Of a stretch of DNA of 64,000 nucleotides, positions 8,842 through 64,000 are shown piece by piece. This stretch comes from an uncultured Actinomycetes bacterium (GTDB lineage Bacteria; Actinomycetota; Thermoleophilia; Solirubrobacterales; 70-9): positions 113,943 to 177,942 of the forward strand of contig CAVSJS010000007.1 in assembly GCA_963728325.1 (NCBI GenBank), read 5' to 3'. A model generated the notes under the pieces. It saw only the letters and a list, made by a program, of their open reading frames with translations. It was not told the DNA's origin and searched no databases. The number at the start of each line of letters is the position of its first letter. Within the stretch, counting starts at the first letter, position 1. Made by a program: the position numbers and the translations under genes.

Positions 8842-10249
8842 CTAGAACTCGCAGCTACCGTTGACCGTGTCCGCGCCGTCGGGGACGTTTGTGTCGGTGC
8901 CCCCGTTGGTGCAGTTGATCGTGTCGGCCCCGCCCTCGCCGTTGAGGAAGTCGCCGAAGGTGCTGTCGGTGAGGGTGTCGTTGCCGAGTCGTCCGAATAG
9001 CGACACGGCCTGGTCGGCGGCTGTCGCGTTGATCGTGTCGCCGCTGGAGTTCCCGATCACCCGCTCGATGTCGCCGTTGACGTTGTCGCCTGTGTTGCCG
9101 AAGCCGTCGTTGTCGTCCGCGACGTCATCGAGGTCGACGCTGATCCCTCCTCCTCCGGTGAAGGGGAACCCGTAGGTCACCGTGTCGAAGCCCGCGGCAC
9201 CCGTCGTCCCGTCACCATTGAAGATGTCGTTGCCCTCGCCGCCGCCCATGAAGTCGGCGCCGTTGCCGCCGGAACAGGTGTTGGGATCGCCGTTGAGAGT
9301 GTCGGTTCCGGTCGCTGTGCCGTTGGCGCTACTGGGATCGCCAGCGAAGGTGTTCGCGAAGCAACTCCCGGTGATCGTGTCAGCGAGTGGTGCTCCCGGT
9401 GACGGACTCGACCGTGTCCCGGACGTTGCTGTCGTCGGACCCCGTGTCTGCGCAGCTGTCGTCGTTGGCGACGTTGTCCATGGTGATGTTGATCGCCTGC
9501 GCCGTGCAGGTGTAGGTGTGGCCGGTGATGATGCCGAACACGACCCGGTCGATTCCCGAGCCGCCGTCGAGGTCGTCGTCATCGTTGCCGTTCGGTCCTC
9601 CGTCCAGCCGGTCGTTCCCGGCGTCGCCGTTGAGGTCGTCGTCATCAAGGTCACCGATCAGCGTGTCGTTGTCGTTACCGCCGTTGAGCGTGTCGTTCCC
9701 CTCACCGCCGCTGAGCGTGTCGGTCCCGTCGCCACCGTTGAGCGTGTCGTTGTTGTCGCCGCCGTTGATTGTGTCGGCGCCGGGCCCGCCGCTAAGGATG
9801 TCGTTCTTGCGCTCGCCGTCGATGGTGTCACCCTGGGAGCCGCCGGTGAGGGTGTCAACGCCATCACGCCCGGGAAACGTCACCGGAACCAGGGTGACGC
9901 CCGAGGCATTGCCGGTGTCGGCGGTGTTGCCCGTGCCGAGGTCGAGCACGATCGATGTCACTCCGGCATTGCTGCAAGTAAGGGTGTCGCCCGAGGGTGC
10001 GTTGCAGCCGCCGCCATTGGTCGGGTTGACGCTCGTATCCGTGAACACGAAGTTCCCGGCGGATTCGGTGACGGTGAGGGTGTTCGTCGTAGAGTCGCCC
10101 AGGAACGTGATGGTGCTCCCGGACTTGGTCACGGACCCGGCCGAAGCGACGGCGGGAACGGCGGCGAGAGCCGCGAGCGCCAGCGCGACGGTCAGCCCTG
10201 CGCGCCGATAGGCGCCTCCGTCACGACGACTCATGCTGCTCGACGACAT
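8842..10249 (-). pseudogene. Secreted calcium-binding, RTX-like (GGxGxD nonapeptide) repeat protein. One frame break as assembled.
   Basis: Signal LTVALALAALAAVPAVASA. Repeats run LTGGSQGDTIDG..LSGGPGADTINGGDNNDTLNGGDGTDTLSGGEGNDTL. ORFs 9380..10249 and 8842..9654 join if one base is removed from CCCGG at 9395..9399. Confidence 0.6.
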
Positions 10250-52068: not shown

Positions 52069-52788
52069 CTATTTGATCGGGGCGGCGCGGATCGTGTCCG
52101 TGGTAGTCAGGTGAAGCTTTCGGGCCGTCCTCTGGGTCAGGTCCCAGCGAACGCCACTTGCGTACGGGCCGCGATCGATCACCCGGGCCCTGACGTAGCG
52201 GCTGCGATATTTGAGTGTCACCTTGGTCCCGCAGGGAAGGTTGCGATGGGCGACGCCGATCGTCTTGCGCCGCAGCGTCTGGCCGCAGGCGGTGCTCCCG
52301 CCGAAGAAGCCGGGCCCGTACCAGGTGGCGACGCTCTTCGGCATCGTGCGGACGACCTTCTTGCGCGTCTTGCTGCCCACGACGCCGTCGCTGTGCAGGC
52401 TGTGGCGGCGCTGGAAGCGCCGCACCGAGCGGGCGGTCGGATTCTCGAAGTCCTTGCCCAGCGGCACGCCGTAGGACTTCGCTTTCAGGATCCAGTGGAG
52501 CGTCTTGACGTCGCCTCCGCAATCCCCGAGGTCGAGCGCCCGGGAGCCGAACCGCATCGCCGGGCACTCGCTGGAACCCCCGCCGCGCGCGGATCCCGTG
52601 CCGCCGGAGCCGGCCCGGGCGCTGGTCGCGGCCGCGACCATGGCGATCACGGCCATCGCGACCGCCCAGAAGGCGATCCGGTCGGGGCGGCGCAGCGGCC
52701 GGTCTCTGACCGGCCGGCCCGCTCCCGGCGCCGGTTGCCGCCTGCGGTATTCGATTTCCACCCGCGAACGGGAGGCGCCTTCGTACAT
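52069..52788 (-). CDS. RlpA-like double-psi beta-barrel cell-wall protein with a peptidoglycan-binding domain
   Basis: TM anchor. PG_binding-like GGDVKTLHWILKAKSYGV...RSVRRFQRRHSLHSDGVVG. DPBB: ATWYGPGFFGGSTACGQTL...VAHRNLPCGTKVTLKYRSRYVRARVIDRGPY. Confidence 0.7.
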   Translation of the reverse strand: MYEGASRSRVEIEYRRRQPAPGAGRPVRDRPLRRPDRIAFWAVAMAVIAMVAAATSARAGSGGTGSARGGGSSECPAMRFGSRALDLGDCGGDVKTLHWILKAKSYGVPLGKDFENPTARSVRRFQRRHSLHSDGVVGSKTRKKVVRTMPKSVATWYGPGFFGGSTACGQTLRRKTIGVAHRNLPCGTKVTLKYRSRYVRARVIDRGPYASGVRWDLTQRTARKLHLTTTDTIRAAPIK

Positions 52789-52940
52789 CTGCTCTTTCGG
52801 TCGCTTACGGGGTTAGCTGACGGGCTCGCGCCGAAAGAAGGCGCTACGCGGCAGTCGCCTGCGATTCGCCCCAGAGAAAACTGGGTCCCCCGATCCCCGC
52901 GGCTATGTGGCGGGGATTCAGCCGGAAGCTCGCGGCATCC
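52789..52940 (-). promoter_or_regulatory. ydaO/yuaA-type (c-di-AMP) riboswitch in the 5' leader of the RlpA-like gene
   Basis: The minus-strand RNA contains CUGAAUCC, GGGGGACCCA, GGGGCGAAUC and CCCGUCAGCUAACCCCGUAAGCGACCGAAAGAG immediately before the ATG. These match the conserved ydaO segments as I remember them. The class is known upstream of actinobacterial cell-wall hydrolase genes. Confidence 0.7.
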
Positions 52941-53850: not shown

Positions 53851-53878
53851 GGGAGAGGCCCCTCGCGGGGCCTCTCCC
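53851..53878. terminator. 12-bp GC hairpin between the convergent SDR gene and the NTF2-like array
   Basis: GGGAGAGGCCCC-TCGC-GGGGCCTCTCCC, followed by TTGTT on the plus strand. Confidence 0.6.
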
Positions 53879-53898
53879 TTGTTCTCCTGCGACATCGC

Positions 53899-54297
53899 CT
53901 ACTCCCGGAGGAGGCCCGCGGCTTCGAAGGCCTCGCGTCGTTGGTAGAACCACTGAAATCGGACGATGGCTCCGCCGCTGACGGTCCAAAGGTGGAATTC
54001 GGGTCGCTCCGCTTCCATTCCGCTTCCTCGGCCATGACCGCGAAAGGTGACCGCCACGAGCACCTTGTCGTGCGCGTCAATGAAGTCCTCCGGAGTATGC
54101 GTGGGCTCGTCCCACGCCATCGCTGTTGCCGCGAAGGCGTCCCTGACCCCTTTGTGGCCACTACGGAGGCCGGGCTCGATTGCATCGCTCGGACTGATCC
54201 ACTCGATGGCCGGGTCCAGCAACCGCAGCAGTGCGTCCAGGTCGGTGTCGAACACCTCGTACGCCCGACGCACCACTTCGACGCCTTCCCGCGACAT
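53899..54297 (-). CDS. NTF2/SnoaL-like array cistron 14 (last full one)
   Basis: MSREGVEVVRRAYEVF...FIDAHDKVLVAVTFRGHGRGSGM...AFEAAGLLRE. Its stop is followed by GCG and a head-only stub ATGTCGCAGGAGAAC that runs into the terminator. Confidence 0.75.
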   Translation of the reverse strand: MSREGVEVVRRAYEVFDTDLDALLRLLDPAIEWISPSDAIEPGLRSGHKGVRDAFAATAMAWDEPTHTPEDFIDAHDKVLVAVTFRGHGRGSGMEAERPEFHLWTVSGGAIVRFQWFYQRREAFEAAGLLRE

Positions 54298-54300
54298 CGC

Positions 54301-54702
54301 CTACTCCCGCAGCCCGGCGGCTTCGAGGGCTTCGGCCTTGCTACGGCAACGACGCCACCAGTTGGTCTTCTTGTCGTGCCACTCGGTGACCACCCAGGAC
54401 TTCTGCTCGGTGGGGGCGTCGCTCCCCATGCCTTGGCCACTGAGCCGCACCCGCGCGACCGTCACGTCTCCAAGGTCTCGTACATCGTCGAGCTCCGATC
54501 TGAAATCGGGGAAGACGCCGAACAGGTTCTCCCACCAGCTTCGGACACCGTCGTGGCCGCGGTAGGAGCCGCCCCCCTTCACCTCCAGGGTGCGCGGGAT
54601 GAACTCGATGTCGGGGTCGGAGAGCGCGAGTACGGAATCGATGTCGCGCCGGTTGATGGCAGCAGTTAATCGGTAAACCAGCTCCGCGTTCTCCTGCGAC
54701 AT
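54301..54702 (-). CDS. NTF2/SnoaL-like array cistron 13
   Basis: MSQENAELVYRL...YRGHDGVRSWWENLFGVFPDF...AEALEAAGLRE. It is preceded by a leader copy (54703..54751). Confidence 0.75.
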   Translation of the reverse strand: MSQENAELVYRLTAAINRRDIDSVLALSDPDIEFIPRTLEVKGGGSYRGHDGVRSWWENLFGVFPDFRSELDDVRDLGDVTVARVRLSGQGMGSDAPTEQKSWVVTEWHDKKTNWWRRCRSKAEALEAAGLRE

Positions 54703-54751
54703 CGCCCGCGCAGTATCTCGCTCTGGTCCGTGGGTAGCGCCACGGCTCCCA
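54703..54751 (-). promoter_or_regulatory. Array leader element, copy 1 (partial)
   Basis: Minus strand: GGGAGCCGTGGCGCTACCCACGGACCAGAGCGAGATACTGCGCGGGCG, followed by the ATG. Confidence 0.45.
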
Positions 54752-54771
54752 GACGTAGAGCTTCATTTAGA

Positions 54772-55155
54772 TCATGTTGCTACGCCGGCCGCCCGCAGGG
54801 CCGTCTCGGGGTCCTGGAACATCTCCACGCGCGCGATCTTGCCCTCACGGAGCGTGTAGACCCAGCCCGCCCGCTCCTCGACTTCGACACCGCTCTCCTT
54901 CGCCTTACCGACTTGGTGGTAGAGCAGAACAACTCTGTCGCCTGAGGCGACGAGCTGGTCCACCTCGAAGCGGTACTCGCTCCACATCTCCTCCCACCTC
55001 TTCGCTTCCGCGACCACCCCGGCGGGCCCGTGGAACCGCTCGAGCGATGTGGCCACTTCGACGTCGTTTGCAAATGCCGGCAGCGCGGCTTCGTAGTCGC
55101 CGCGGAGGTAGTTCTCAAGCATCTCGCGGACGACGGCGACGTTCTCCTGCGACAT
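54772..55155 (-). CDS. NTF2/SnoaL-like array cistron 12 (variant tail)
   Basis: MSQENVAVVREML...GDRVVLLYHQVGKAKESGVEVE...TLREGKIARVEMFQDPETALRAAGVAT. It ends in TGA rather than TAG. Confidence 0.75.
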   Translation of the reverse strand: MSQENVAVVREMLENYLRGDYEAALPAFANDVEVATSLERFHGPAGVVAEAKRWEEMWSEYRFEVDQLVASGDRVVLLYHQVGKAKESGVEVEERAGWVYTLREGKIARVEMFQDPETALRAAGVAT

Positions 55156-55158
55156 CGC

Positions 55159-55563
55159 CTACTCCTGAAGCCCGGCGGCTTCGAGGGCTTCGGCACGGTC
55201 GGAGTAGTTGTCGAGTCGCGTGACCCAACCGTCGCGGACCGTGGCGACCTGAGCCATCGCCAACTCCATCGGAACGCGACTGCCTCGACCCTTCCCTCGG
55301 TGGCAGAACAGGCTGACCACGCGGCCGTCCGGCGCGGCGAGAACGTCTTCGACGGTGATCTCATAGTCGTCCCACACCTCGAGCCACTCTTCCAAGAAGC
55401 GCTGAACCCCCTCGATGCAGTGATAGTCGGACTCGGGCCAGTCCCGAAAGTGGCTCGTATCCCAGACGATCTCAGGATCCCAGTTGCGAAAGAGGCCGGG
55501 CAGATCATCACGAAGCCACGCGTCCCAGCCTTGGCGGATGATCTCCACGTTCTCCCGCGACAT
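55159..55563 (-). CDS. NTF2/SnoaL-like array cistron 11
   Basis: MSRENVEIIRQGWDAW...GRVVSLFCHRGKGRGS...AEALEAAGLQE. Start taken at ATG 55563. The ORF extends upstream through the leader. Confidence 0.75.
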   Translation of the reverse strand: MSRENVEIIRQGWDAWLRDDLPGLFRNWDPEIVWDTSHFRDWPESDYHCIEGVQRFLEEWLEVWDDYEITVEDVLAAPDGRVVSLFCHRGKGRGSRVPMELAMAQVATVRDGWVTRLDNYSDRAEALEAAGLQE

Positions 55564-55620
55564 CGCTCGCGCAGTATCTCGCCCTGGCCTGCGGGCCGCC
55601 AGGGCCACGGCTTCCATGAG
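55564..55620 (-). promoter_or_regulatory. Array leader element, copy 2
   Basis: Minus strand: CTCATGGAAGCCGTGGCCCTGGCGGCCCGCAGGCCAGGGCGAGATACTGCGCGAGCG, followed by the ATG. Confidence 0.45.
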
Positions 55621-55793
55621 TCGGGCGGGTTCCCGTCAATCAGCCTGCCGAGGCTGGAGGTACCGGTCGCCGCCTGACCGCCCCTGCACAAAAGGGGCCG
55701 CATCCGACGCGTTCGCGGAGGACGCTCAGGTGCTGCCACCCTTGCTCATGGAGATCTCCAGCGGCTAGAAGCGTCTAGCGAAACTCGACACGG

Positions 55794-56201
55794 CTACTCC
55801 CGCAGCCCGGCGGCTTCGAAAGCTCTCGCTTTGTCAAGAAAGCTGCGGATGCGAACGGTCTTCCCGTCCCGGAGCGTCATGATGAAGCACCAGTTGAGGA
55901 ACTGCGTCTCCCGGTCCGTCGCCCCGAGCGGGTGTCCGAGGGCCGTGATGACGGCCAGTACGTCGTCACCTCCGAGGTCGATGAGTTCGTGGATGTCGAC
56001 GCGAAACGCGCCGATCGCTCGGATAAAGCCTTGAAGATAGGTTCGGACCGCCTCTTGACCGGAATACTCACCCGGCTCCGGAACGAGCGGGTCGGTATGC
56101 CAGACGATCCCCGGATCCCAGAACCGCTCCATCCCCGACAGACCCTCGGTGTTGAAGGCCTCGAAGCCTCTGCGGACGATCTCCACCTTCTCCTCCGACA
56201 T
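55794..56201 (-). CDS. NTF2/SnoaL-like array cistron 10 (monocistronic unit)
   Basis: MSEEKVEIVRRGFEAFN...LIDLGGDDVLAVITALGHPLG...TLRDGKTVRIRSFLDKARAFEAAGLRE. Confidence 0.75.
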   Translation of the reverse strand: MSEEKVEIVRRGFEAFNTEGLSGMERFWDPGIVWHTDPLVPEPGEYSGQEAVRTYLQGFIRAIGAFRVDIHELIDLGGDDVLAVITALGHPLGATDRETQFLNWCFIMTLRDGKTVRIRSFLDKARAFEAAGLRE

Positions 56202-56258
56202 CGCCCGCGCAGCATCTCGCTCTGGCCTGCGGGCCGCCAGCGCCACGGCTTCCAGGAG
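56202..56258 (-). promoter_or_regulatory. Array leader element, copy 3
   Basis: Minus strand: CTCCTGGAAGCCGTGGCGCTGGCGGCCCGCAGGCCAGAGCGAGATGCTGCGCGGGCG, followed by the ATG. Confidence 0.45.
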
Positions 56259-56344
56259 TTGGGCGGGTTTCCCTTTAGGGCTGGCTGCCGTCCTTGCTCG
56301 TGGGACTACCAGCCCCTAGAAGCGTCTAGCGAGACTCACCACGG

Positions 56345-56740
56345 CTACTCCCGCAGGCCGGCGGCTTTGAGGCCCTCGGCTCGGTCGAAGTACTCCTCCA
56401 CCCGCACGACCTTGCCGTCGCGAAAGGTCCAAATCTGCGCCTGCTCCATCTCCACCGGAGCGCCAGAGGTGATCCCCTTGCCCGAGAACCGAATCCAGGC
56501 GAAGACCTTGTCGCCCGCGTCGATCAGCTCCTCCGCGCGAAGTTCGATGCCATCGAACATTCCCGACCACTGGGCGAAGTAGCCGCCTATCGCCTCCAGT
56601 CCCCGATGGGTCGCGGCGTCCGGGTCCTCGCGGGCCGCCATCCACTCAGCGTCGGAGTCGTAGATCTCAGGCAGGACCTCGCCGGTCCGGCTGAATTGCT
56701 CCTGTTGGCGGCGGACCGCCTCGACGTTCTCCTGCGACAT
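56345..56740 (-). CDS. NTF2/SnoaL-like array cistron 9
   Basis: MSQENVEAVRRQQEQF...LIDAGDKVFAWIRFSGKGITSGAP...TFRDGKVVRVEEYFDRAEGLKAAGLRE. Confidence 0.75.
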   Translation of the reverse strand: MSQENVEAVRRQQEQFSRTGEVLPEIYDSDAEWMAAREDPDAATHRGLEAIGGYFAQWSGMFDGIELRAEELIDAGDKVFAWIRFSGKGITSGAPVEMEQAQIWTFRDGKVVRVEEYFDRAEGLKAAGLRE

Positions 56741-56743
56741 CGC

Positions 56744-57148
56744 CTACTCCGAAAGCCCAGCCGCTTCGAGGGCCTGGGCGCGATTGAGGAAGATCTCGGA
56801 GCGAATGATCTTCCCGTTGCGCATGGTGATCACGTCGTAGCGGTCGAACTCCACCGGCACTCCGCTTCCTGCGCCGGTGGCCGCGACGTGGGTGTTGACG
56901 AGAAGCCGGTCGGGACTCTCGAGTTCGGTGATACCCCGGATGTTGATGTCGAAGGTCTCGGCCACCTCCAGGGCGCCCTTCATGCTGGCGAGGGCAGCCT
57001 CTCGGCCCTTGCCCTGGCCCTCGTCCGGCCACTCGGGCGGGAGGCGAAACTCGACCTCGGGATCAAACCCCTCAAGCCAGCGTGCGAGGTCGCCGCGTGC
57101 GAGCGCGTCGATCTGCTCTCGCAGTCTGTCGACGTTCTCCTGCGACAT
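56744..57148 (-). CDS. NTF2/SnoaL-like array cistron 8
   Basis: MSQENVDRLREQIDAL...TMRNGKIIRSEIFLNRAQALEAAGLSE. Confidence 0.75.
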   Translation of the reverse strand: MSQENVDRLREQIDALARGDLARWLEGFDPEVEFRLPPEWPDEGQGKGREAALASMKGALEVAETFDINIRGITELESPDRLLVNTHVAATGAGSGVPVEFDRYDVITMRNGKIIRSEIFLNRAQALEAAGLSE

Positions 57149-57151
57149 CGG

Positions 57152-57496
57152 CTACTCCGAAAGCCCGGCGGCTTTCATGGCGTCGGCCCTCTCCCAGTAG
57201 CTCCGCTCACGCGAGAACACGAGAACCTCATCGCCCCCTGCGTCGATGAATTCCTCCGGCTTCATTCGGTAGTCCTCGATCGCCTCGAGCAATGTGGTGA
57301 TGCAGTCGCGTACCCCCTCGTGTCCGAAACGAGATTCCGCGAGGTCGGGGAACTCGCGCGGACCGCGCCAGTCAATCGCGGGATCGAGCCACTCGAAGAT
57401 AGCCTCAAAGTCCCCTCTCTCAAAGTCGCCGCTGGCGAAGCCTTCCACCAAGGCTGCGTAGTGGCGCCGGACCAACTCCACGTTCTCCTGCGACAT
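57152..57496 (-). CDS. NTF2/SnoaL-like array cistron 7 (short, 114 aa; apparent in-frame loss of the last beta strands)
   Basis: MSQENVELVRRHYAAL...FIDAGGDEVLVFSRERSYWERADAMKAAGLSE. The RGxGxxSG...RDGK segment seen in its neighbours is missing. Confidence 0.65.
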   Translation of the reverse strand: MSQENVELVRRHYAALVEGFASGDFERGDFEAIFEWLDPAIDWRGPREFPDLAESRFGHEGVRDCITTLLEAIEDYRMKPEEFIDAGGDEVLVFSRERSYWERADAMKAAGLSE

Positions 57497-57499
57497 CGC

Positions 57500-57901
57500 C
57501 TACTCCTGAAGTCCGGCTGCTTCGAGGGCCTGCTCAGGAGACGCGTACACCTGGGCACGCTGAATCTGGTTGCCCTGGACGGTGTAGACGATGCCGTAAT
57601 CCATCTCCACCCACGATTCGCTGTCGCGAAGAAGCCCTCGCTGGTGAAGGACCGCCAGGACCTCATCTCGCTCGGTGTCGATGATGTCCTCGACCTCTAT
57701 CTGCCACTCCGCGTAGGGCTCGATCCACCTGCGAAAGAAGCCCATGAACTCTTCGAGGCCATGGAACTCGCCCCGGTCGACCCAGCCCTCGAATGTCGAC
57801 ATGTCCCATACGAAGTCCGGGGAAGTCTGCGCGATGATCCGGGACAGGGCGGGAGTGTCCGAGAGGATGCGGCGGACCGCCTCGACGTTCTCCTGCGACA
57901 T
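57500..57901 (-). CDS. NTF2/SnoaL-like array cistron 6
   Basis: MSQENVEAVRRILSDT...IIDTERDEVLAVLHQRG...PEQALEAAGLQE. Confidence 0.75.
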   Translation of the reverse strand: MSQENVEAVRRILSDTPALSRIIAQTSPDFVWDMSTFEGWVDRGEFHGLEEFMGFFRRWIEPYAEWQIEVEDIIDTERDEVLAVLHQRGLLRDSESWVEMDYGIVYTVQGNQIQRAQVYASPEQALEAAGLQE

Positions 57902-57904
57902 CGC

Positions 57905-58333
57905 CTACTCCTTGAGCCCAGCGTCCACGAGTGCGCGTTCGGGTTGAGTGAGGTATTCCTGGCCTCGTACGAGCCTGTCCCCGCGAAAACCAAAGCGGTG
58001 CGCGTATGGAGCATGGACCTCGACTCCTGCCTCGCGACCACGCGCATAGATGTGGCCGACGGCGACCACCTCGTCCCCTGCATCGTGCAGCTCCCTTGGC
58101 TCCCAGCGGAACTCCTGCCAGGGCTCAGCGTGGCGTTCGAAGAAGTCGCGGATCGCGGCCTCCCCGCGAAGTCCATGCGGGTCGATGTCGTTTTCGTCGG
58201 GCTGCCACTCCGCATCGGGATCGAGGATGGCGAAGAAGGCGTTCACGGCTCGCCCGAAGCTCTCAGAATCGGCCCGGTCGAACCGGACTTCCGCGTAGAG
58301 CTTGCGCACGACCTCCACGTTCTCCTGCGACAT
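57905..58333 (-). CDS. NTF2/SnoaL-like array cistron 5
   Basis: MSQENVEVVRKLYAEV...LHDAGDEVVAVGHIYARGREAGVEV...PERALVDAGLKE. Confidence 0.75.
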   Translation of the reverse strand: MSQENVEVVRKLYAEVRFDRADSESFGRAVNAFFAILDPDAEWQPDENDIDPHGLRGEAAIRDFFERHAEPWQEFRWEPRELHDAGDEVVAVGHIYARGREAGVEVHAPYAHRFGFRGDRLVRGQEYLTQPERALVDAGLKE

Positions 58334-58336
58334 CGC

Positions 58337-59140
58337 CTACTCCTTGAGTCCGGCGGCTTCGAGGGCCTCGGTCCTGCTTCTGTAAGTGCGCCAATGGACA
58401 CATTTCCTGTCCCGCACCTCAGCGACTTGCCAGACCGTCTCCTCAACAAGCACGCCGCTACCAGCGCCCTGGCCGCGAATCCGGACGGTGGCAATGGTCA
58501 AGTCTCCGCTGCTGCGTACCTCGATCGGCTCCACACTGAAGTCGTCGAAGATGGCCAGGAGGTTCTCCCACCAGTTCCGGACACCGTCGTGGCCGTGATA
58601 GGTGCCTCCTTCAATGCCGAGCGTCCGCGGTATTGCCTCCACATCGGGGGCCATGAACGTGAGGAAAGCATCGAGGTCGCGACGGTTGAAGGCGTCATAA
58701 CTGCGCCGCACAAGCTCCACGTTCTCCTCCGACATCGGCCACTCGGACCGCCCGGCGGCTTCGAGGGCTTCGGCCTCGCTCTGAAAGGCGTGCCACCAAA
58801 CGATCCGCTTGTCGCGGACGCGAAAGAGCCCCCAGTAGGTGCGCTCAAACGCCGCTCCGCTCGCAGCGCCGTGTCCACGAAGGCACCCGCGCACGAAGAT
58901 CAGCTCCCCCAGATCCCGAATCTCGTGCAGCTCAACCTTGAAGTCGGGCAGGGTCTCAAATGCCTCGTCCCACCAACGACGTACATCCTCATGGCCGCGG
59001 TAGGGCCCGAGGCCCTCGATCGCCCGCTCGTACGGCGTGAACTCCTCGTCAGGGTCGTGGAGTGCCAGGTAGGCATCCAGGTCTCGCTGGTTGAAGGTTT
59101 CATGCCCTGCCCGCACGATCTCCACGTTCTCCTGCGACAT
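58337..59140 (-). CDS. NTF2/SnoaL-like array cistron 4: two domains fused by loss of the inter-cistronic stop
   Basis: MSQENVEIVRAGHETF...AEALEAAGRSE-W-P-MSEENVELVRRSYDAF...TEALEAAGLKE. At 58739..58741 the junction reads TGG where the other junctions read TAG. Confidence 0.75.
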   Translation of the reverse strand: MSQENVEIVRAGHETFNQRDLDAYLALHDPDEEFTPYERAIEGLGPYRGHEDVRRWWDEAFETLPDFKVELHEIRDLGELIFVRGCLRGHGAASGAAFERTYWGLFRVRDKRIVWWHAFQSEAEALEAAGRSEWPMSEENVELVRRSYDAFNRRDLDAFLTFMAPDVEAIPRTLGIEGGTYHGHDGVRNWWENLLAIFDDFSVEPIEVRSSGDLTIATVRIRGQGAGSGVLVEETVWQVAEVRDRKCVHWRTYRSRTEALEAAGLKE

Positions 59141-59143
59141 CGG

Positions 59144-59545
59144 CTACTCGCTCACCCCGGCGGCTTCGAGGGCCTCGTCACGACTGGCGAAGAAGTCTTG
59201 CCGGATGATCTTGCCGTCGCGCAGGGTCATGACCTGCGTCGTCTGCTCAGAGATTGGTACCCCGCTGGCGCGACCTTTTGCCCGGTGGTTAGTCACCACC
59301 AAGACACGATCGCCCCAGTCGCGGGACTCCTCGACCTCCATCCGGTAGTCCGGATCGAATCGGCTGAACCAGTCCGTGAGCCAATTGATGGCTCCCTTCT
59401 TTCCCGAGACAGTCTCGGCTCCGGCGAGACGGCGCGACTCACCATGAAAGACGAGTGTCACGTCTTCCGCAAGCGCGCCAATCGCCTCAGCAAGGTCGGT
59501 GGCCTCGAAATACCTGACGGCGATCTCCACGTTCTCCTGCGACAT
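59144..59545 (-). CDS. NTF2/SnoaL-like array cistron 3
   Basis: MSQENVEIAVRYFEAT...WGDRVLVVTNHRAKGRASGVP...TLRDGKIIRQDFFASRDEALEAAGVSE. Confidence 0.75.
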   Translation of the reverse strand: MSQENVEIAVRYFEATDLAEAIGALAEDVTLVFHGESRRLAGAETVSGKKGAINWLTDWFSRFDPDYRMEVEESRDWGDRVLVVTNHRAKGRASGVPISEQTTQVMTLRDGKIIRQDFFASRDEALEAAGVSE

Positions 59546-59548
59546 CGG

Positions 59549-59950
59549 CTACTCCGAGACTCCGGCGGCTTCGAGGGCCTCGTCGTACTCCCAGAAGTAC
59601 CGCGCGCGGACGATCCTTCCGCCTCGCAAGAGGAATACGGCTGCCATCGGCGTGTCGAAGGACATTCCGGTGTCCCTGCCCCGAGTTACGTAGCGAATCC
59701 GGGCCAGCACCTGGTCGTCGCCGACGGGACGAATCTCGTCCACCTCGACACGAGCCTCCTCCCAGGAGTCGCGCAAGCGCTCAGCCTGCCGCCTCCACGC
59801 CTCGATCCCCTGCGGCTCCTCTCCCTCGGGCCACCCTTTCGGCGGCGTCACGACGACCTCAGGGTCCCAATGCTCGGCCCATCGATGCCAGTCTCCCTTC
59901 GAGAAGAGCTCGTTCACGCGGCGCACGACCTCCACGTTCTCCTGCGACAT
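59549..59950 (-). CDS. NTF2/SnoaL-like array cistron 2
   Basis: MSQENVEVVRRVNELF...VGDDQVLARIRYVTRGRDTGM...LLRGGRIVRARYFWEYDEALEAAGVSE. Confidence 0.75.
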   Translation of the reverse strand: MSQENVEVVRRVNELFSKGDWHRWAEHWDPEVVVTPPKGWPEGEEPQGIEAWRRQAERLRDSWEEARVEVDEIRPVGDDQVLARIRYVTRGRDTGMSFDTPMAAVFLLRGGRIVRARYFWEYDEALEAAGVSE

Positions 59951-59953
59951 CGC

Positions 59954-60355
59954 CTACTCCCGCAGCCCGGCGGCTTCGAGGGCCCGCTGTTTCTCCCAGA
60001 ACGCCTCCCAGCGAATGATCTTGCCATCGCGTAGCGTGAACACTGCCGCGGCTAGGGCCTCAACCTCGATGCCGTCTCGTCCGGTGAAGTGCTCGACGCT
60101 GACGAGCAGGACCTTGTCGGTACCCACCGCACGAATTTCCTTTGGATCGGTCCGGTGCTTCTCCCAAGCCTCGTTGAACGAATTGAACTGCTTCCGGACT
60201 TCCTCGCGACCGCGAGCCACGCGCGGAGAGGGTGACTCCGGTGGATCATGGAACTCGATGTCGTCCGCGAAGAACCTCCGGGCGGCAGCTTCTGGGCCTT
60301 CCGTGTTGAAGACTTCGGCGGCCTTCCTGATGACCTCGATGTTCTCCTCCGACAC
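59954..60355 (-). CDS. NTF2/SnoaL-like array cistron 1
   Basis: (V)SEENIEVIRKAAEVFN...VGTDKVLLVSVEHFTGRDGIEVE...TLRDGKIIRWEAFWEKQRALEAAGLRE. GTG 60355 was chosen because the longer ORF (to 60547) would overlap the leader, the terminator and rnpB. Confidence 0.7.
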   Translation of the reverse strand: MSEENIEVIRKAAEVFNTEGPEAAARRFFADDIEFHDPPESPSPRVARGREEVRKQFNSFNEAWEKHRTDPKEIRAVGTDKVLLVSVEHFTGRDGIEVEALAAAVFTLRDGKIIRWEAFWEKQRALEAAGLRE

Positions 60356-60412
60356 GGCCCGCGCAGTATGTCGCCCCGGCGTGGGGGCCGCGAGCGCCAC
60401 GGCTCCCAGGAG
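60356..60412 (-). promoter_or_regulatory. Array leader element, copy 4 (heads the nine-cistron unit)
   Basis: Minus strand: CTCCTGGGAGCCGTGGCGCTCGCGGCCCCCACGCCGGGGCGACATACTGCGCGGGCC, followed by the GTG. Confidence 0.45.
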
Positions 60413-60480
60413 GCGTGGCACTGCCGAAGGACCCCCGTCGAGCGCAAACGTGACGAGTCCTTGGCGAAGGGTCCTATAGG

Positions 60481-60504
60481 AAAACCCCGCCGGAGCGGGG
60501 CTTT
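60481..60504 (-). terminator. Rho-independent terminator after rnpB
   Basis: Minus strand: AAAG-CCCCGC-TCCG-GCGGGG-TTTT. Confidence 0.65.
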
Positions 60505-60507
60505 CCC

Positions 60508-60882
60508 TTAGCAGGCCTGTAAGCCGGATTCTGTCGTGTGCAGCCATCTGTCTTGCCGGGGACTGGGTCCCCGGAGAGCCCCGTTCGCCGGGGCCCTGCG
60601 GCCTACCTGGACCTCGCCGGGCCGGGTCATCGGTCCTGCTCGGCCTTGCACCGGACGGGGTTTACCCTGACGCGCCGCGTCACCGTGGCGCCGGTGCGCT
60701 CTTACCGCACCATTTCACCTTTGCCTGTGCGCGGCTCACGTGAGGCCGCGCCATCGGCAGTGTCGTTTCTGTGGCACTTTCCCGCGGGTTTCCCCGGGTC
60801 GGCGTTACCGACCGTCCTTGCCCTGTGGTGTCCGGACTTTCCTCGAGGAGCGTCACCCCCCGTGACTGCATGGCCTACAGGA
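60508..60882 (-). ncRNA. rnpB: RNase P RNA, bacterial type A
   Basis: The minus strand contains GAGGAAAGTCCGGAC (P4 5' strand, 60830..60844), GGTAACGCC, AAGGTGAAATGGTGCGGTAAGAGCGCACC, and ACAGAATCCGGCTTACAGGCC (P4 3' strand, about 60515..60535). GTAGGCC (60872..60878) can pair with GGCCTGC (60511..60517) as P1. The ends are approximate. Confidence 0.85.
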
Positions 60883-60964: not shown

Positions 60965-61189
60965 TCAGGAGAGCTCCGAGCCGCAGGCGCGGCAGCCGCC
61001 GTCGGCTGAGGGTGACATCGAGCCGCCGCAGACGGGGCAGACCGCCCGGCCCTCGGCCGCGAGGTCCTCCCAGACGCGCAGCACGACATCCTCGAGCGTC
61101 GCGCCACCGGGCTCGAACAGCCTCGACCCACCGGGGCCCGACTGCCGCTGCTCGACGACGGCTTGCTCCCGGGTCGCGAGCGCAGCCAC
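60965..61189 (-). CDS. Small zinc-ribbon protein (74 aa) co-transcribed with lexA
   Basis: The GTG start lies 1 nt after the lexA stop. The C-terminal CPVCGG...CRACGS motif is a Cys4 pattern. No family recognised. Confidence 0.45.
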   Translation of the reverse strand: MAALATREQAVVEQRQSGPGGSRLFEPGGATLEDVVLRVWEDLAAEGRAVCPVCGGSMSPSADGGCRACGSELS

Positions 61190-61932: not shown

Positions 61933-62018
<86 letters not shown>

Positions 62019-62021
62019 CTG

Positions 62022-62297: not shown

Positions 62298-62864
62298 CTA
62301 CTCCCGCAGCCCGGCGGCTTCGAGGGCCTTGATGCCGACAGGGGTCATCGCATCAATCTCACAGTTGCGAACCACGTCATCAACATCGCAGGTATCGCGT
62401 CCCCGGCCGCCGTCGATGATGTCGCGGCCTGGCCCGCCGAGAAGAAGATCCCAGCCCCGGCCGCCTTTAAGCCTGTCCCGCCCACCGCCACCAATGGCCG
62501 TGTCGCGACCAGCCTTGCCTTTGATCAAATCTTGGCCTTTGCCGCCAGCGAGCAAACCAAAGCGTGGGCGGCCCAGCCCATCCCAGCCCGGTCCCGCCAC
62601 GATCCGGTCGCCTCCTGGCCCCCCACGGATGAAGTCTGCGCCGCCGCGACCATAAAGCTTGTCGGCCCCCGCGCGACCCTCGATGTTGTCGTCGCCCGAG
62701 GTTCCCTTGATCGAGTCTGGCTTCGCGGTTCCGGTGAAGTCGTCCGCGAGCGCAAACGCAGTCGCTCCGCCGACCAGCACCATCGTCAACACGAGCAGCC
62801 GAGTGGTTGCGGTCGTCAGCGAGGACATCGGTTTGGCGTCGGTCTCCACGTTCTCCTGCGACAT
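62298..62864 (-). CDS. Chimeric ORF: the array head (MSQENVE) and array tail (ALEAAGLRE) enclose a signal-peptide-bearing RTX-like GGxGxD repeat protein
   Basis: MSQENVETDAKP-MSSLTTATTRLLVLTMVLVGGATAFA-...GRAGADKLYGRGGADFIRGGPGGDRIVAG...GGGGRDRLKGGRGWDLLLGGPGRDIIDGGRGRDTCDVDDVVRNCE-IDAMTPVGIKALEAAGLRE. An array leader fragment lies upstream. Confidence 0.7.
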   Translation of the reverse strand: MSQENVETDAKPMSSLTTATTRLLVLTMVLVGGATAFALADDFTGTAKPDSIKGTSGDDNIEGRAGADKLYGRGGADFIRGGPGGDRIVAGPGWDGLGRPRFGLLAGGKGQDLIKGKAGRDTAIGGGGRDRLKGGRGWDLLLGGPGRDIIDGGRGRDTCDVDDVVRNCEIDAMTPVGIKALEAAGLRE

Positions 62865-62885
62865 CGCCCGCGCAGTATCTCGCGA
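62865..62885 (-). promoter_or_regulatory. Array leader element, copy 5 (proximal 21 nt only)
   Basis: Minus strand: TCGCGAGATACTGCGCGGGCG, followed by ATGTCGCAGGAGAACGTGGAG. Confidence 0.4.
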
Positions 62886-63316: not shown

Positions 63317-64000
63317 CTACGGCTCGCAGTTGACGACGAAGCCGGTTCCAGGCCCCTGATCGCAACTGTCGGTGTCGTCGCCGCCGTTGAGGTAGTCATT
63401 GCCCTCCTCGCCGAAGAGGTCATCGTTGTCCAGACCGCCGGAGAGTTGGTCGTTCCCGCGTCCGCCGAAAAGATCGTCATTGCCGTGCTTGCCGTCTATG
63501 ACGTCAGCTCCCTCGTCGCCAGAGAGCCTGTCGCGGGAGTCGCCTCCATTGATGGTGTCCGCTCCCAGGCCGCCCGAGACGTAGTCGATACGTGGGTCGC
63601 CCCCACCGCCGGGCCTGTCTCCCCAGAGCTTGTCACTGCCGCCACCGCCCCGCAGCCAGTCACGGCCGTCGCCGCCGATCACCCGGTCGGCGCCCTCGCC
63701 GCCGAAGAGCCTTTCGTCCCACCAGTTTTGCTGGCCCAGGAGCACGTCTGCACCCCGCCCGCCCTTGATGTAGTCGGCGCGGGTCCCGCCGTGGATCTCG
63801 TCGGCACCGCGCCCGCCACAGATGATGTCGCGCGCGTCGCGGCCCCGGATGACGTCTTTGCCACCGCGCGCGACGATGACGTCGGGTTGGTTAGTCCCCC
63901 GAATCCGGTCCTGGCCGGGTGTGCCCACGATCGTCGCCCGCTCACCGGAGCAGGTGGCGCGTCTGGCCGCCGCCGGACTGACGCCCGATGCTGCGAGCAA
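63317..64000 (-). CDS. RTX-like calcium-binding repeat protein; the N-terminus lies outside the window
   Basis: GGRGADEIHGGTRADYIKGGRGADVLLG...GGEGADRVIGGDGRDWLRGGGGSDKL...GGLGADTINGGDSRDRLSGDEGADVIDG...GGDDTDSCDQGPGTGFVVNCEP, then stop. Confidence 0.65.
   Translation of the reverse strand: MLAASGVSPAAARRATCSGERATIVGTPGQDRIRGTNQPDVIVARGGKDVIRGRDARDIICGGRGADEIHGGTRADYIKGGRGADVLLGQQNWWDERLFGGEGADRVIGGDGRDWLRGGGGSDKLWGDRPGGGGDPRIDYVSGGLGADTINGGDSRDRLSGDEGADVIDGKHGNDDLFGGRGNDQLSGGLDNDDLFGEEGNDYLNGGDDTDSCDQGPGTGFVVNCEP

Follow-up and report, generated by a model that had tools for sequence, protein, structure and literature searches.

Why should a row of small genes carry almost the same nucleotides at both ends of every gene, around bodies that have diverged? 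This question is raised by a gene array in contig CAVSJS010000007.1 (assembly GCA_963728325.1) from an uncultured Actinomycetes bacterium of the Solirubrobacterales. We analysed 64,000 nucleotides of this contig (positions 113,943 to 177,942; this whole stretch is called the window). The array consists of 14 head-to-tail cistrons of 114-267 aa, which were read from the open reading frame (ORF) listing and the sequence and follow one another on the minus strand from 60355 to 53899. Each is a SnoaL_2 gene with a conserved start (head) and a conserved end (tail), and we refer to such a gene as a cassette. Cassettes also occur singly in different places and species, where they behave like mobile gene cassettes of an undescribed kind; the literature we searched, with incomplete coverage, contained no description of such a system. 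The explanation that we favour, with modest confidence, is that these are single-gene cassettes whose coding termini double as expression signals and recombination handles.

Conserved ends around divergent bodies

The Pfam profile SnoaL_2 (PF12680) was found above its curated cut-off in every one of the 14 cistrons, with E values from 4e-33 to 2.5e-6. Together they carry 15 SnoaL_2 domains, as cistron c04 (267 aa) contains two. The AlphaFold2 (AF2) model of c02 (59549..59950, minus strand), a cassette whose junction, head and tail are all canonical, was an NTF2 alpha+beta cone (pLDDT 93.5, pTM 0.87). In this model helix 1 begins with the head, and the tail forms a short C-terminal helix, after which come three disordered residues. 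Foldseek matched the model at TM 0.7-0.8 with limonene epoxide hydrolase (LEH), ketosteroid isomerase (KSI), SnoaL-like cyclases and Bal32a, and also with uncharacterised structural-genomics proteins. The sequence-only reading of this DNA had proposed 14 ORFs of that size range with 15 domains and NTF2/SnoaL-like bodies. The numbers were borne out by the ORF listing and Pfam, and the fold by the profile matches, the model and Foldseek.

Pairwise protein identity of the domains was 21-55%, with the domains d04a, d04b and d13 being 46-55% alike. Near-identical DNA was confined to the first ~24 and the last ~30 bases of the cassettes. The head ATGTCGCAGGAGAACGT was present in 10 exact copies in the window, and in 16 copies at no more than 3 mismatches against 0.14 expected. 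At the same tolerance, the tail GCCCTCGAAGCCGCCGG was found 14 times in the array and once in a chimeric gene outside it. The string GAGTAG(G/C)CGATGTCGCAGGAGAACGT stood at nine junctions between cassettes and was preceded by G at eight of them, exactly as had been counted before for a shared 26-nt junction string. Conserved ends around divergent bodies, the central observation of the sequence-only reading, are thus confirmed by 10 exact heads next to domains of such low identity.

The ends were also compared with the interior at synonymous sites, a check that had been proposed earlier. At residues identical between paralogues, the same codon was used in 86% of cases in the head and 68% in the tail, against 45% in the body. 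Several of the fixed codons were not the preferred ones in the 37 other genes of the window. Ser2 was TCG in 15/15 cases in the array (38% elsewhere), the tail Glu was GAA in 11/11 (8% elsewhere), the tail Gly was GGG in 9/15 (23% elsewhere), and the stop was TAG in 13/14 (46% elsewhere). Where Lys replaced the tail Glu its codon was AAA, used for 2% of the Lys residues in the other genes. These results indicate that the terminal conservation exceeds protein constraint. It had been cautioned that part of this conservation is protein-level, and this caution is partly right. The QENV..V start of helix 1 is also present in the distant Protein Data Bank (PDB) relative 3fgy, so some head conservation is protein-level. 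The C-terminal ALEAAGLxE helix was unaligned in any PDB relative.

Two other candidates for the fixed nucleotides were rejected. Inspection of head and tail by eye for a LexA (SOS) box gave only a single half-site like TCGAAC. An ORF of 1142 aa (56606-60034, plus strand) runs antisense to c02-c09 and contains the repeats LHVLLRHRLLPQPGGFEG, which are the antisense of each junction. c02-c09 share one reading frame because every spacer is 3 nt, and the reverse frame is codon-aligned to this in-frame array. The antisense ORF had no coding signature in the G+C content of third codon positions (GC3), and it is impossible for single cassettes; we judged it to be an artefact of composition, produced by high G+C together with the shared frame.

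Cassettes in other genomes

Comparison loci were collected by an exact match to the 18-nt head, with one genome per GTDB species, and all cross-genome counts of loci, tails, pairs and junctions given here are among the matches listed. At least 120 stretches shared the head, the tail and a 17-nt leader that precedes some cassettes. Nearly all of them came from metagenome-assembled genomes (MAGs) of Solirubrobacterales, Thermoleophilaceae or Solirubrobacteraceae, and a few seed matches were chance hits inside unrelated genes of other phyla. About 300 SnoaL_2 bodies were detected in the comparison loci. The run of 10 + 4 in the window was the longest among the sampled loci.

The exact-head seed biases the head statistics but not those of the tail, which lies outside the seed. 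Across genomes the tail used GCC (123/140), CTC (131/136), GAA for Glu (115/120, plus AAA 12 and CAA 5), again GCC after GAA (135/140) and GGG (119/140), and it ended in TAG in 135/140 cases and never in TGA. TCG was also found in 50/56 heads that did not match the seed. The 17-nt core of the tail differed by 1.71 mismatches between genomes and 1.62 within them, and an identical core together with the head was found across at least 80 species-level MAGs. As the core is equally conserved between and within genomes, concerted evolution is real but minor, and the constraint is order-wide.

This bears on the proposal that the array is a set of tandem-duplicated paralogues, in which intragenomic gene conversion keeps the ends alike and the bodies diverge. 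Some homogenisation within genomes was indeed detected. The variable 10 nt of the tail had 2.28 mismatches within genomes versus 2.53 between them (reached in 1/500 permutations), 11/15 tails were identical in locus L001, and the resemblance of d04a, d04b and d13 fits such a history. However, conversion alone would let the genomes drift apart, and this does not agree with the same core and head in so many species. Adjacent cassettes were no closer to each other than cassettes of different genomes. None of 131 adjacent pairs reached 50% identity, only about a third were detectable at all (median identity 31%), and the identity distribution matched that of different-locus pairs. The array is therefore not a diverged tandem duplication. 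Near-identical cassettes were moreover found in unrelated contexts of different species. We regard this explanation, which had been listed earlier as concerted evolution of a duplicated family, as largely refuted and very unlikely to be the main cause.

The relatives of c02 in metagenomes ranged from 94% down to 50% identity, so that the paralogues are old, separate lineages. Orthologous c02 cassettes (59-94%) stood in other contexts. The exact c02 protein had no record in public assemblies, and a comparison of c02 with plasmids gave nothing beyond a 33% Sinorhizobium match. The head pattern was absent from viral contigs. No orthologous rnpB-array-SDR locus was present among the comparison loci.

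The extent of homology between genomes showed which piece of DNA is shared. Over 488 nt, c02 and contig L123 were 92.6% identical in DNA. The genes on either side were unrelated, and the alignment decayed exactly within the upstream gene's tail and the downstream gene's head. The same was true of all inter-genome pairs with at least 70% aa identity (46/46, range 70-97%). With up to 700 nt of flank available on each side, the homology block was 312-488 nt long and comprised one cassette only. For the six closest pairs (93-97% DNA identity, different species-level MAGs), the cassette block was the sole homology in the 8-kb loci. Conserved neighbours were found in 0/89 comparisons (two of which use the duplicate contig L124), which answers the earlier call to compare the array content of related genomes. 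One cassette stood behind a tail junction in L039 and behind a promoter module in L088, and the homology extended from GCG-ATG or the leader GATACT to GAG-TAG. Gene maps of the c02 relatives P0003 and P0005, both from one sample, showed yet other neighbours. The bodies had synonymous divergence (dS) as low as 0.05-0.15 between different GTDB species, whose representatives differ by more than 5% overall, and the median dN/dS was 0.29. The cassette genes appear to be functional and fairly fast-evolving, and they have probably been exchanged between species. The cassettes move, and we infer the route of movement from their boundaries.

Some loci departed from the common pattern. In L047, from a MAG labelled Acidimicrobiales, an exact head lies on a frameshifted NTF2 start at 950, which could reflect transfer or mis-binning. 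In L002 an 87-aa ORF without NTF2 similarity (9694-9957) is followed by a tail remnant and a junction. A dispersed double-hairpin repeat (CGCTTTGGACGAGAAGCGG, CCGCTTTGCATGGAAAGCGG) had 197 matches in 40/125 loci, such as L026 (minus strand), L043 (6334-6420), L048 (415-480) and L009, and in many cases it is situated after a terminal TAG and ahead of the next promoter-like leader. Rfam contained no family for the double-hairpin repeats of the related loci and none within the array. The repeat could act as a terminator or operator, or be a REP-like element.

Expression and exchange at the cassette boundaries

Four cassettes, c01, c10, c11 and c13, and the chimeric gene have the 17-nt leader GAGATACTGCGCGGGCG in front instead of a junction. 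On the minus strand, a degenerate copy GACATACTGCGCGGGCC (60356..60372) abuts the start of c01, GAGATGCTGCGCGGGCG (56202..56218) abuts the ATG of c10, GAGATACTGCGCGAGCG (55564..55580) that of c11, GAGATACTGCGCGGGCG itself (54703..54719) that of c13, and another exact copy (62865..62881) that of the chimera. The array would therefore form about four transcription units. Over 120 copies, the leader was conserved only from -19 to -1 (GCGaGATACTGcGcGGGCG). It has GATACT at -15..-10, similar to the TATACT predicted before tRNA-Leu, and then a G+C-rich discriminator that ends at the ATG. With GATACT in this position the transcription start site (TSS) would fall ~7 nt downstream, at about -3. This suggests a near-leaderless mRNA beginning with GCG-AUG at the run starts. 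The same GCG precedes the ATG in both leader-type and stop-3nt-start junctions.

Two observations concern the origin of the leader. At L001 9517-9580 and 16644-16710, an alternative junction GAGTAG-G-GAGATACTGCGCGGGCG-ATG has the 17-nt leader between stop and start, and the promoter module itself would therefore be a compact insertable unit. In the window, ~55 nt upstream of the leaders are a genome-specific repeat CTGGAAGCCGTGGCGCTGGCGGCCCGCAGGCCAG (60373-60425, 56219-56270, 55581-55632 and 54720-54765, minus strand). Its in-frame translation, LEAVALAARRP, looks like a degenerate tail, so that the leader-type boundary may derive from the junction.

Inside the runs, the next start follows the stop closely. 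TAG, 3 nt and ATG were found at 9 junctions of the window, and elsewhere the distance from stop to ATG was exactly 3 nt in 119/163 junctions. GGAG lies at -10..-7, that is, 6 nt before the ATG and within the last codons of the upstream cistron, as had been noted from the sequence. This motif was kept in 89% of internal but 72% of terminal tails (p=0.001), which suggests termination-reinitiation coupling inside the runs. TAG, GAA, GGG and the 17-mer, however, were equally conserved in terminal tails without a downstream cistron. Coupling thus explains four bases and not the rest, and the earlier option of selection for translational coupling stands only for GGAG.

A pure expression constraint on the nucleotides of head and tail, with the cassette-sized homology arising from fast turnover of an accessory family, would accommodate the position of GGAG and its better retention in internal tails, the exact 3-nt spacer and the -10-like GATACT. 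It would also fit the unstructured junction RNA (z -1.5 to +1.9 against shuffles) and the presence of the leader ahead of non-family genes. However, it does not account for the equal conservation in terminal tails, and it leaves unexplained why homology blocks end exactly in head and tail and why near-identical cassettes differ more in their ends than in their bodies. Positions -33 to -11 also fit no known signal. Translationally coupled operons are similar in that GGAG stands within the last codons, 6 nt ahead of the next ATG, and that stop and start are separated by a short, fixed distance; GGAG in the array is better kept where a cistron follows. Coupling needs no invariant spacer, fixed stop, 17-nt upstream core or invariant first five codons, and all of these are conserved order-wide and also in terminal tails. 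We consider expression constraint alone an unlikely explanation.

The divergence of the ends pointed to exchange. In the six closest pairs, the tails differed at 19/198 sites and the bodies at 92/2061 (p=0.003), so that the tails were twice as diverged, and the differences were scattered through head and tail. Distant pairs had the reverse trend, with ends diverged by 13-18% and bodies by 22%. The history of the ends is therefore decoupled from that of the body, and such decoupling would be the signature of exchange within the ends. Terminal tails were often followed by head stubs that were cut variously, after GCG, GCGA, GCGATGTCGC or the full head. As these stubs are broken at different points in the head, they argue against a fixed crossover site.

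We suggest that the array arose by accretion of independent one-gene cassettes from a hyper-diverse SnoaL_2 family that extends across the order (Solirubrobacterales/Thermoleophilia). The unit would run from GCG-ATG-TCG-CAG-GAG-AAC-GT.. to ..GCC-CTC-GAA-GCC-GCC-GGG-CTG-NNN-GAG-TAG, and abutted units would yield the stop-3nt-start junction that keeps a run in one reading frame. Its termini would have two jobs. The first would be expression, through the leader at run starts and the GGAG coupler inside runs. The second would be exchange, with the 25-57 nt of near-identical boundary DNA as the place where cassettes are swapped, added and lost. Most likely, any two cassettes or slots would undergo homologous recombination or gene conversion with each other, also when the DNA comes from other species. 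Cassettes with intact handles would keep spreading, and in this way the handle nucleotides themselves would be preserved.

Among the options raised by the sequence-only reading, ends that act as recombination handles fit best, since inter-genome homology is cassette-sized and breaks inside head and tail. Known systems of homology-flanked exchange (pilE/pilS, vlsE/vls and VSG conversion, minimal mobile elements, capsule-locus switching) also have variable cores between short conserved recombination substrates, and the history of their ends is likewise decoupled from the core. They differ from the NTF2 cassettes in several respects. All NTF2 copies are complete and separately translatable, without a division into expression site and silent store; their flanks are ~25-57 nt long and lie within the gene itself; and exchange would take place between species, not as a programme within a clone.

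Several points weigh against the explanation by coding termini with two jobs. For an exchange of the RecA type the handles are short, with 17-40 nt exact and ~57 nt if the whole junction is counted. Handle-to-handle exchange alone does not explain single cassettes that lack an obvious resident slot, such as in L126. An expression function at the RNA or DNA level, rather than selection for exchange, could wholly account for the order-wide synonymous identity. The comparison loci, 8-kb blocks, come from MAGs that in many cases are long-read assemblies containing frameshifts, and their sampling is biased. Recombination, promoter, TSS and coupling are all read from sequence. A dedicated recombination enzyme is possible, given two recurrent features of the loci. 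A 234-aa tyrosine recombinase (Pfam Phage_integrase) recurs in 4/127 loci, as homologues of 56-69% identity from four species (L125 1531-2235, L105 5332-6018, L038 1110-1799 and L041 3763-4380); they lie 1-5 kb from cassettes and none adjoins one. tRNA genes numbered 36 per 0.98 Mb of cassette loci, and 13 lay no more than 500 nt from a cassette; their density is about three-fold the typical genome density if the value assumed, not measured, for that density holds.

These two features would also fit an integron-like system, in which an unlinked site-specific recombinase inserts and excises single cassettes at the junction or at the unit ends. Such a system would also agree with the precise unit boundaries (GCG-ATG ... 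GAG-TAG), the exact 3-nt junction, the frequent vicinity of tRNA genes and rnpB, and cassettes that are single or arrayed, in one orientation and mostly without their own promoter. The NTF2-like Bal32a (1tuh), with TM 0.80 to c02 a close structural match, is the product of a soil integron cassette (Robinson et al. 2005, ref 52 in PMC3548836), so that cargo of this kind is known there. However, an attC-like junction was rejected, as there are 3 nt between the ORFs and no inverted repeat or hairpin on either strand. Junction folding as RNA and as DNA of either strand gave z from -1.5 to +1.9 against shuffles, without excess structure. No recombinase gene, and no IntI, attI or Pc beside the array, was found in the scanned part of the window, which took in ~14 kb towards low coordinates and everything up to the window end towards high coordinates, though not every ORF. 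The recurrent recombinase is not adjacent to cassettes, and the stubs and end differences indicate variable, not fixed, crossover points. An integron-like recombinase is improbable to us.

The resemblance to integron arrays (IntI/attI/attC; sedentary chromosomal integrons and clusters of attC sites lacking integron-integrases, CALINs) is still considerable. Both have co-oriented small one-gene units that are mostly promoterless and driven from the array start, content that differs wholly between related genomes, units that also occur singly, a conserved repeat at each boundary and a boundary remnant after the last unit. Unlike them, the NTF2 array has no attC and no linked integrase or attI. 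Its boundary repeat is inside coding termini and encodes conserved N- and C-terminal peptides, one protein family occupies ~85% of the slots, and the breakpoints are variable.

A bolder extension of the explanation by double-duty termini is tentative, and we find it plausible but rather doubtful. The cassettes may represent a new type, whose in-gene handles are also a portable promoter/leaderless start and a Shine-Dalgarno (SD)-stop-start coupler, and whose NTF2 pool circulates between species. They would be plug-and-play in any slot, and the pool would comprise hundreds of different NTF2 pockets together with an occasional gene of another kind. This would operate without attC or a linked integrase; the means would be either ordinary homologous recombination over 25-57 nt or an enzyme yet to be discovered. 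If true, this would be a second, mechanistically different solution to the integrons' task of stockpiling and exchanging small genes, in an abundant, barely cultured soil lineage. The cassettes would also offer a natural example of synonymous sites fixed across a bacterial order, in which selection for expression signals can be separated from selection through recombinational spread.

Proteins, slots and surroundings of the array

In an alignment of the 14 cassettes, the only invariant columns were S1, E3, A128 and G129. The KSI Tyr/Asp/Asp, the LEH Asp-Arg-Asp and the SnoaL Asp were not conserved among these 14, and no invariant polar residue was present in the body. No NCBIfam model reached its cut-off. 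The array proteins thus resemble the SnoaL_2/NTF2-like superfamily (KSI-like, LEH and SnoaL cyclases; 3fgy, 3ec9, 3ebt) in sequence and predicted fold, but they have no conserved catalytic residue and fit no curated NCBIfam model. With low confidence, we suggest from this a set of differing pockets that bind or transform small molecules, rather than one enzyme. The PDB relatives include the DIG digoxigenin binders. The cassette pool would amount to an extensive natural library built on a single adaptable ligand-binding scaffold, which has already served for designed binders, and it may encode functions in chemical sensing or detoxification. As head and tail are invariant, a "cassette PCR" can recover the whole repertoire from soil DNA.

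Conserved ends around variable cores could also belong to a silent-cassette store for antigenic or phase variation, or to immunity proteins against polymorphic toxins, as had been suggested before. NTF2-fold immunity families exist, and secreted RTX-like proteins are encoded nearby. However, every cassette is a full ORF with a start, an SD or promoter and a stop, there is no single expression site, and the cassette proteins have no signal peptide. Pfam scans of the cistrons at E<=0.01 gave only SnoaL_2, SnoaL, DUF4440, SnoaL_3, SnoaL_5 and LEH, and no Imm-NTF2 family. The neighbours are rnpB, LexA, SDR, glutamine synthetase and genes of that sort, and no toxin, Rhs, WXG or secretion genes were found among the scanned flanking genes. 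Both the antigenic-variation analogy and the immunity reading are extremely unlikely in view of these results. The absence of an adjacent toxin, recombinase or integrase, which had been claimed as well, agrees with the scanned flanks.

Slots can hold genes from outside the family. The chimera of the window (62298..62864, minus strand) consists of a head (MSQENVET), an RTX-repeat protein that has a Met and a signal peptide of its own, and a tail (ALEAAGLRE, TAG); it carries both ends, as had been stated. Across all loci 346 heads were detected, of which 340 had enough downstream sequence and 59 were not followed by an NTF2 body. These 59 comprised chance matches, truncated or decayed cassettes and about ten real fusions, in which a leader or junction plus head is joined to an unrelated gene. 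The fusion partners were RTX (in the window, also with a tail), PD40 (L002), diacylglycerol kinase (L019), GNAT (L077), VOC (L011) and others. By itself, the leader was also seen ahead of genes for RTX-like secreted proteins, a cupin and a membrane protein. Small secreted RTX-repeat proteins were repeatedly seen with the promoter-like leader and an MSQ/MPQ start (window 62298-62864 and 63317-64000, minus strand; L002 4091-4765; L037 7700).

The array is bordered by rnpB (60502-60881) on one side and by a convergent SDR gene on the other, and a hairpin closely precedes c01, in line with the earlier statement that it starts after the rnpB terminator. All its features are on the minus strand. The first cassette, c01 (59954..60355), has a GTG start, a degenerate head GTGTCGGAGGAGAACAT and the degenerate promoter-like leader in front. 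It is followed by c02 and c03 (59144..59545) and then by c04 (58337..59140), an in-frame fusion of two cassettes in which the former stop changed from TAG to TGG at 58739-58741 and is followed by CCG ATG TCG GAG. c05 (57905..58333, 142 aa) has an insertion past helix 1 and the tail variant ALVDAGLKE. c06 (57500..57901) precedes c07 (57152..57496, 114 aa), in which an internal deletion removed ~25 sheet residues and left head and tail intact; its SnoaL_2 score was borderline (28.5 bits versus a cut-off of 27), and it is probably decayed. c08 (56744..57148) and c09 (56345..56740) close the first run, and a 143-nt spacer follows. c10 (55794..56201), c11 (55159..55563) and c13 (54301..54702) stand behind promoter-like leaders, c12 (54772..55155) has a degenerate tail ALRAAGVAT and a TGA stop, and c14 (53899..54297) is the last complete cassette. 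Past the last junction there is a 15-nt head-only stub ATGTCGCAGGAGAAC (53881..53895), followed between the array and the SDR gene by a G+C hairpin of 12 bp, GGGAGAGGCCCC GCGA GGGGCCTCTCCC (53851..53878). A stub joined to a terminator hairpin had been described at this end; both elements are present, and the hairpin is probably a terminator, though it has no T run and was unlisted by the T-run terminator scan.

The array region (54001-60000) had a G+C content of 64-65% versus 67-75% elsewhere in the window, a GC3 of 0.76-0.86 versus 0.85-0.93, and a strongly negative GC skew on the plus strand. On one side of the array are rnpB, a small Zn-ribbon-like ORF, LexA, tRNA-Leu and RTX proteins, and on the other the SDR gene, an Rpf-like gene, glutamine synthetase and others. 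Cassettes often adjoin stable-RNA genes (31/125 related loci), and in the window these are rnpB and tRNA-Leu (61933-62019). The Zn-ribbon-like ORF (60965-61189, minus strand, 74 aa) lies between rnpB and lexA, has a CxxC...CxxC pattern and gave no Pfam match. A cyclic di-AMP (ydaO-type) riboswitch (52787-52933, minus strand) lies directly upstream of the gene 52069-52788 (minus strand), which encodes an Rpf-like cell-wall protein with DPBB_1 and PG_binding_1 domains; this pair is unrelated to the array.

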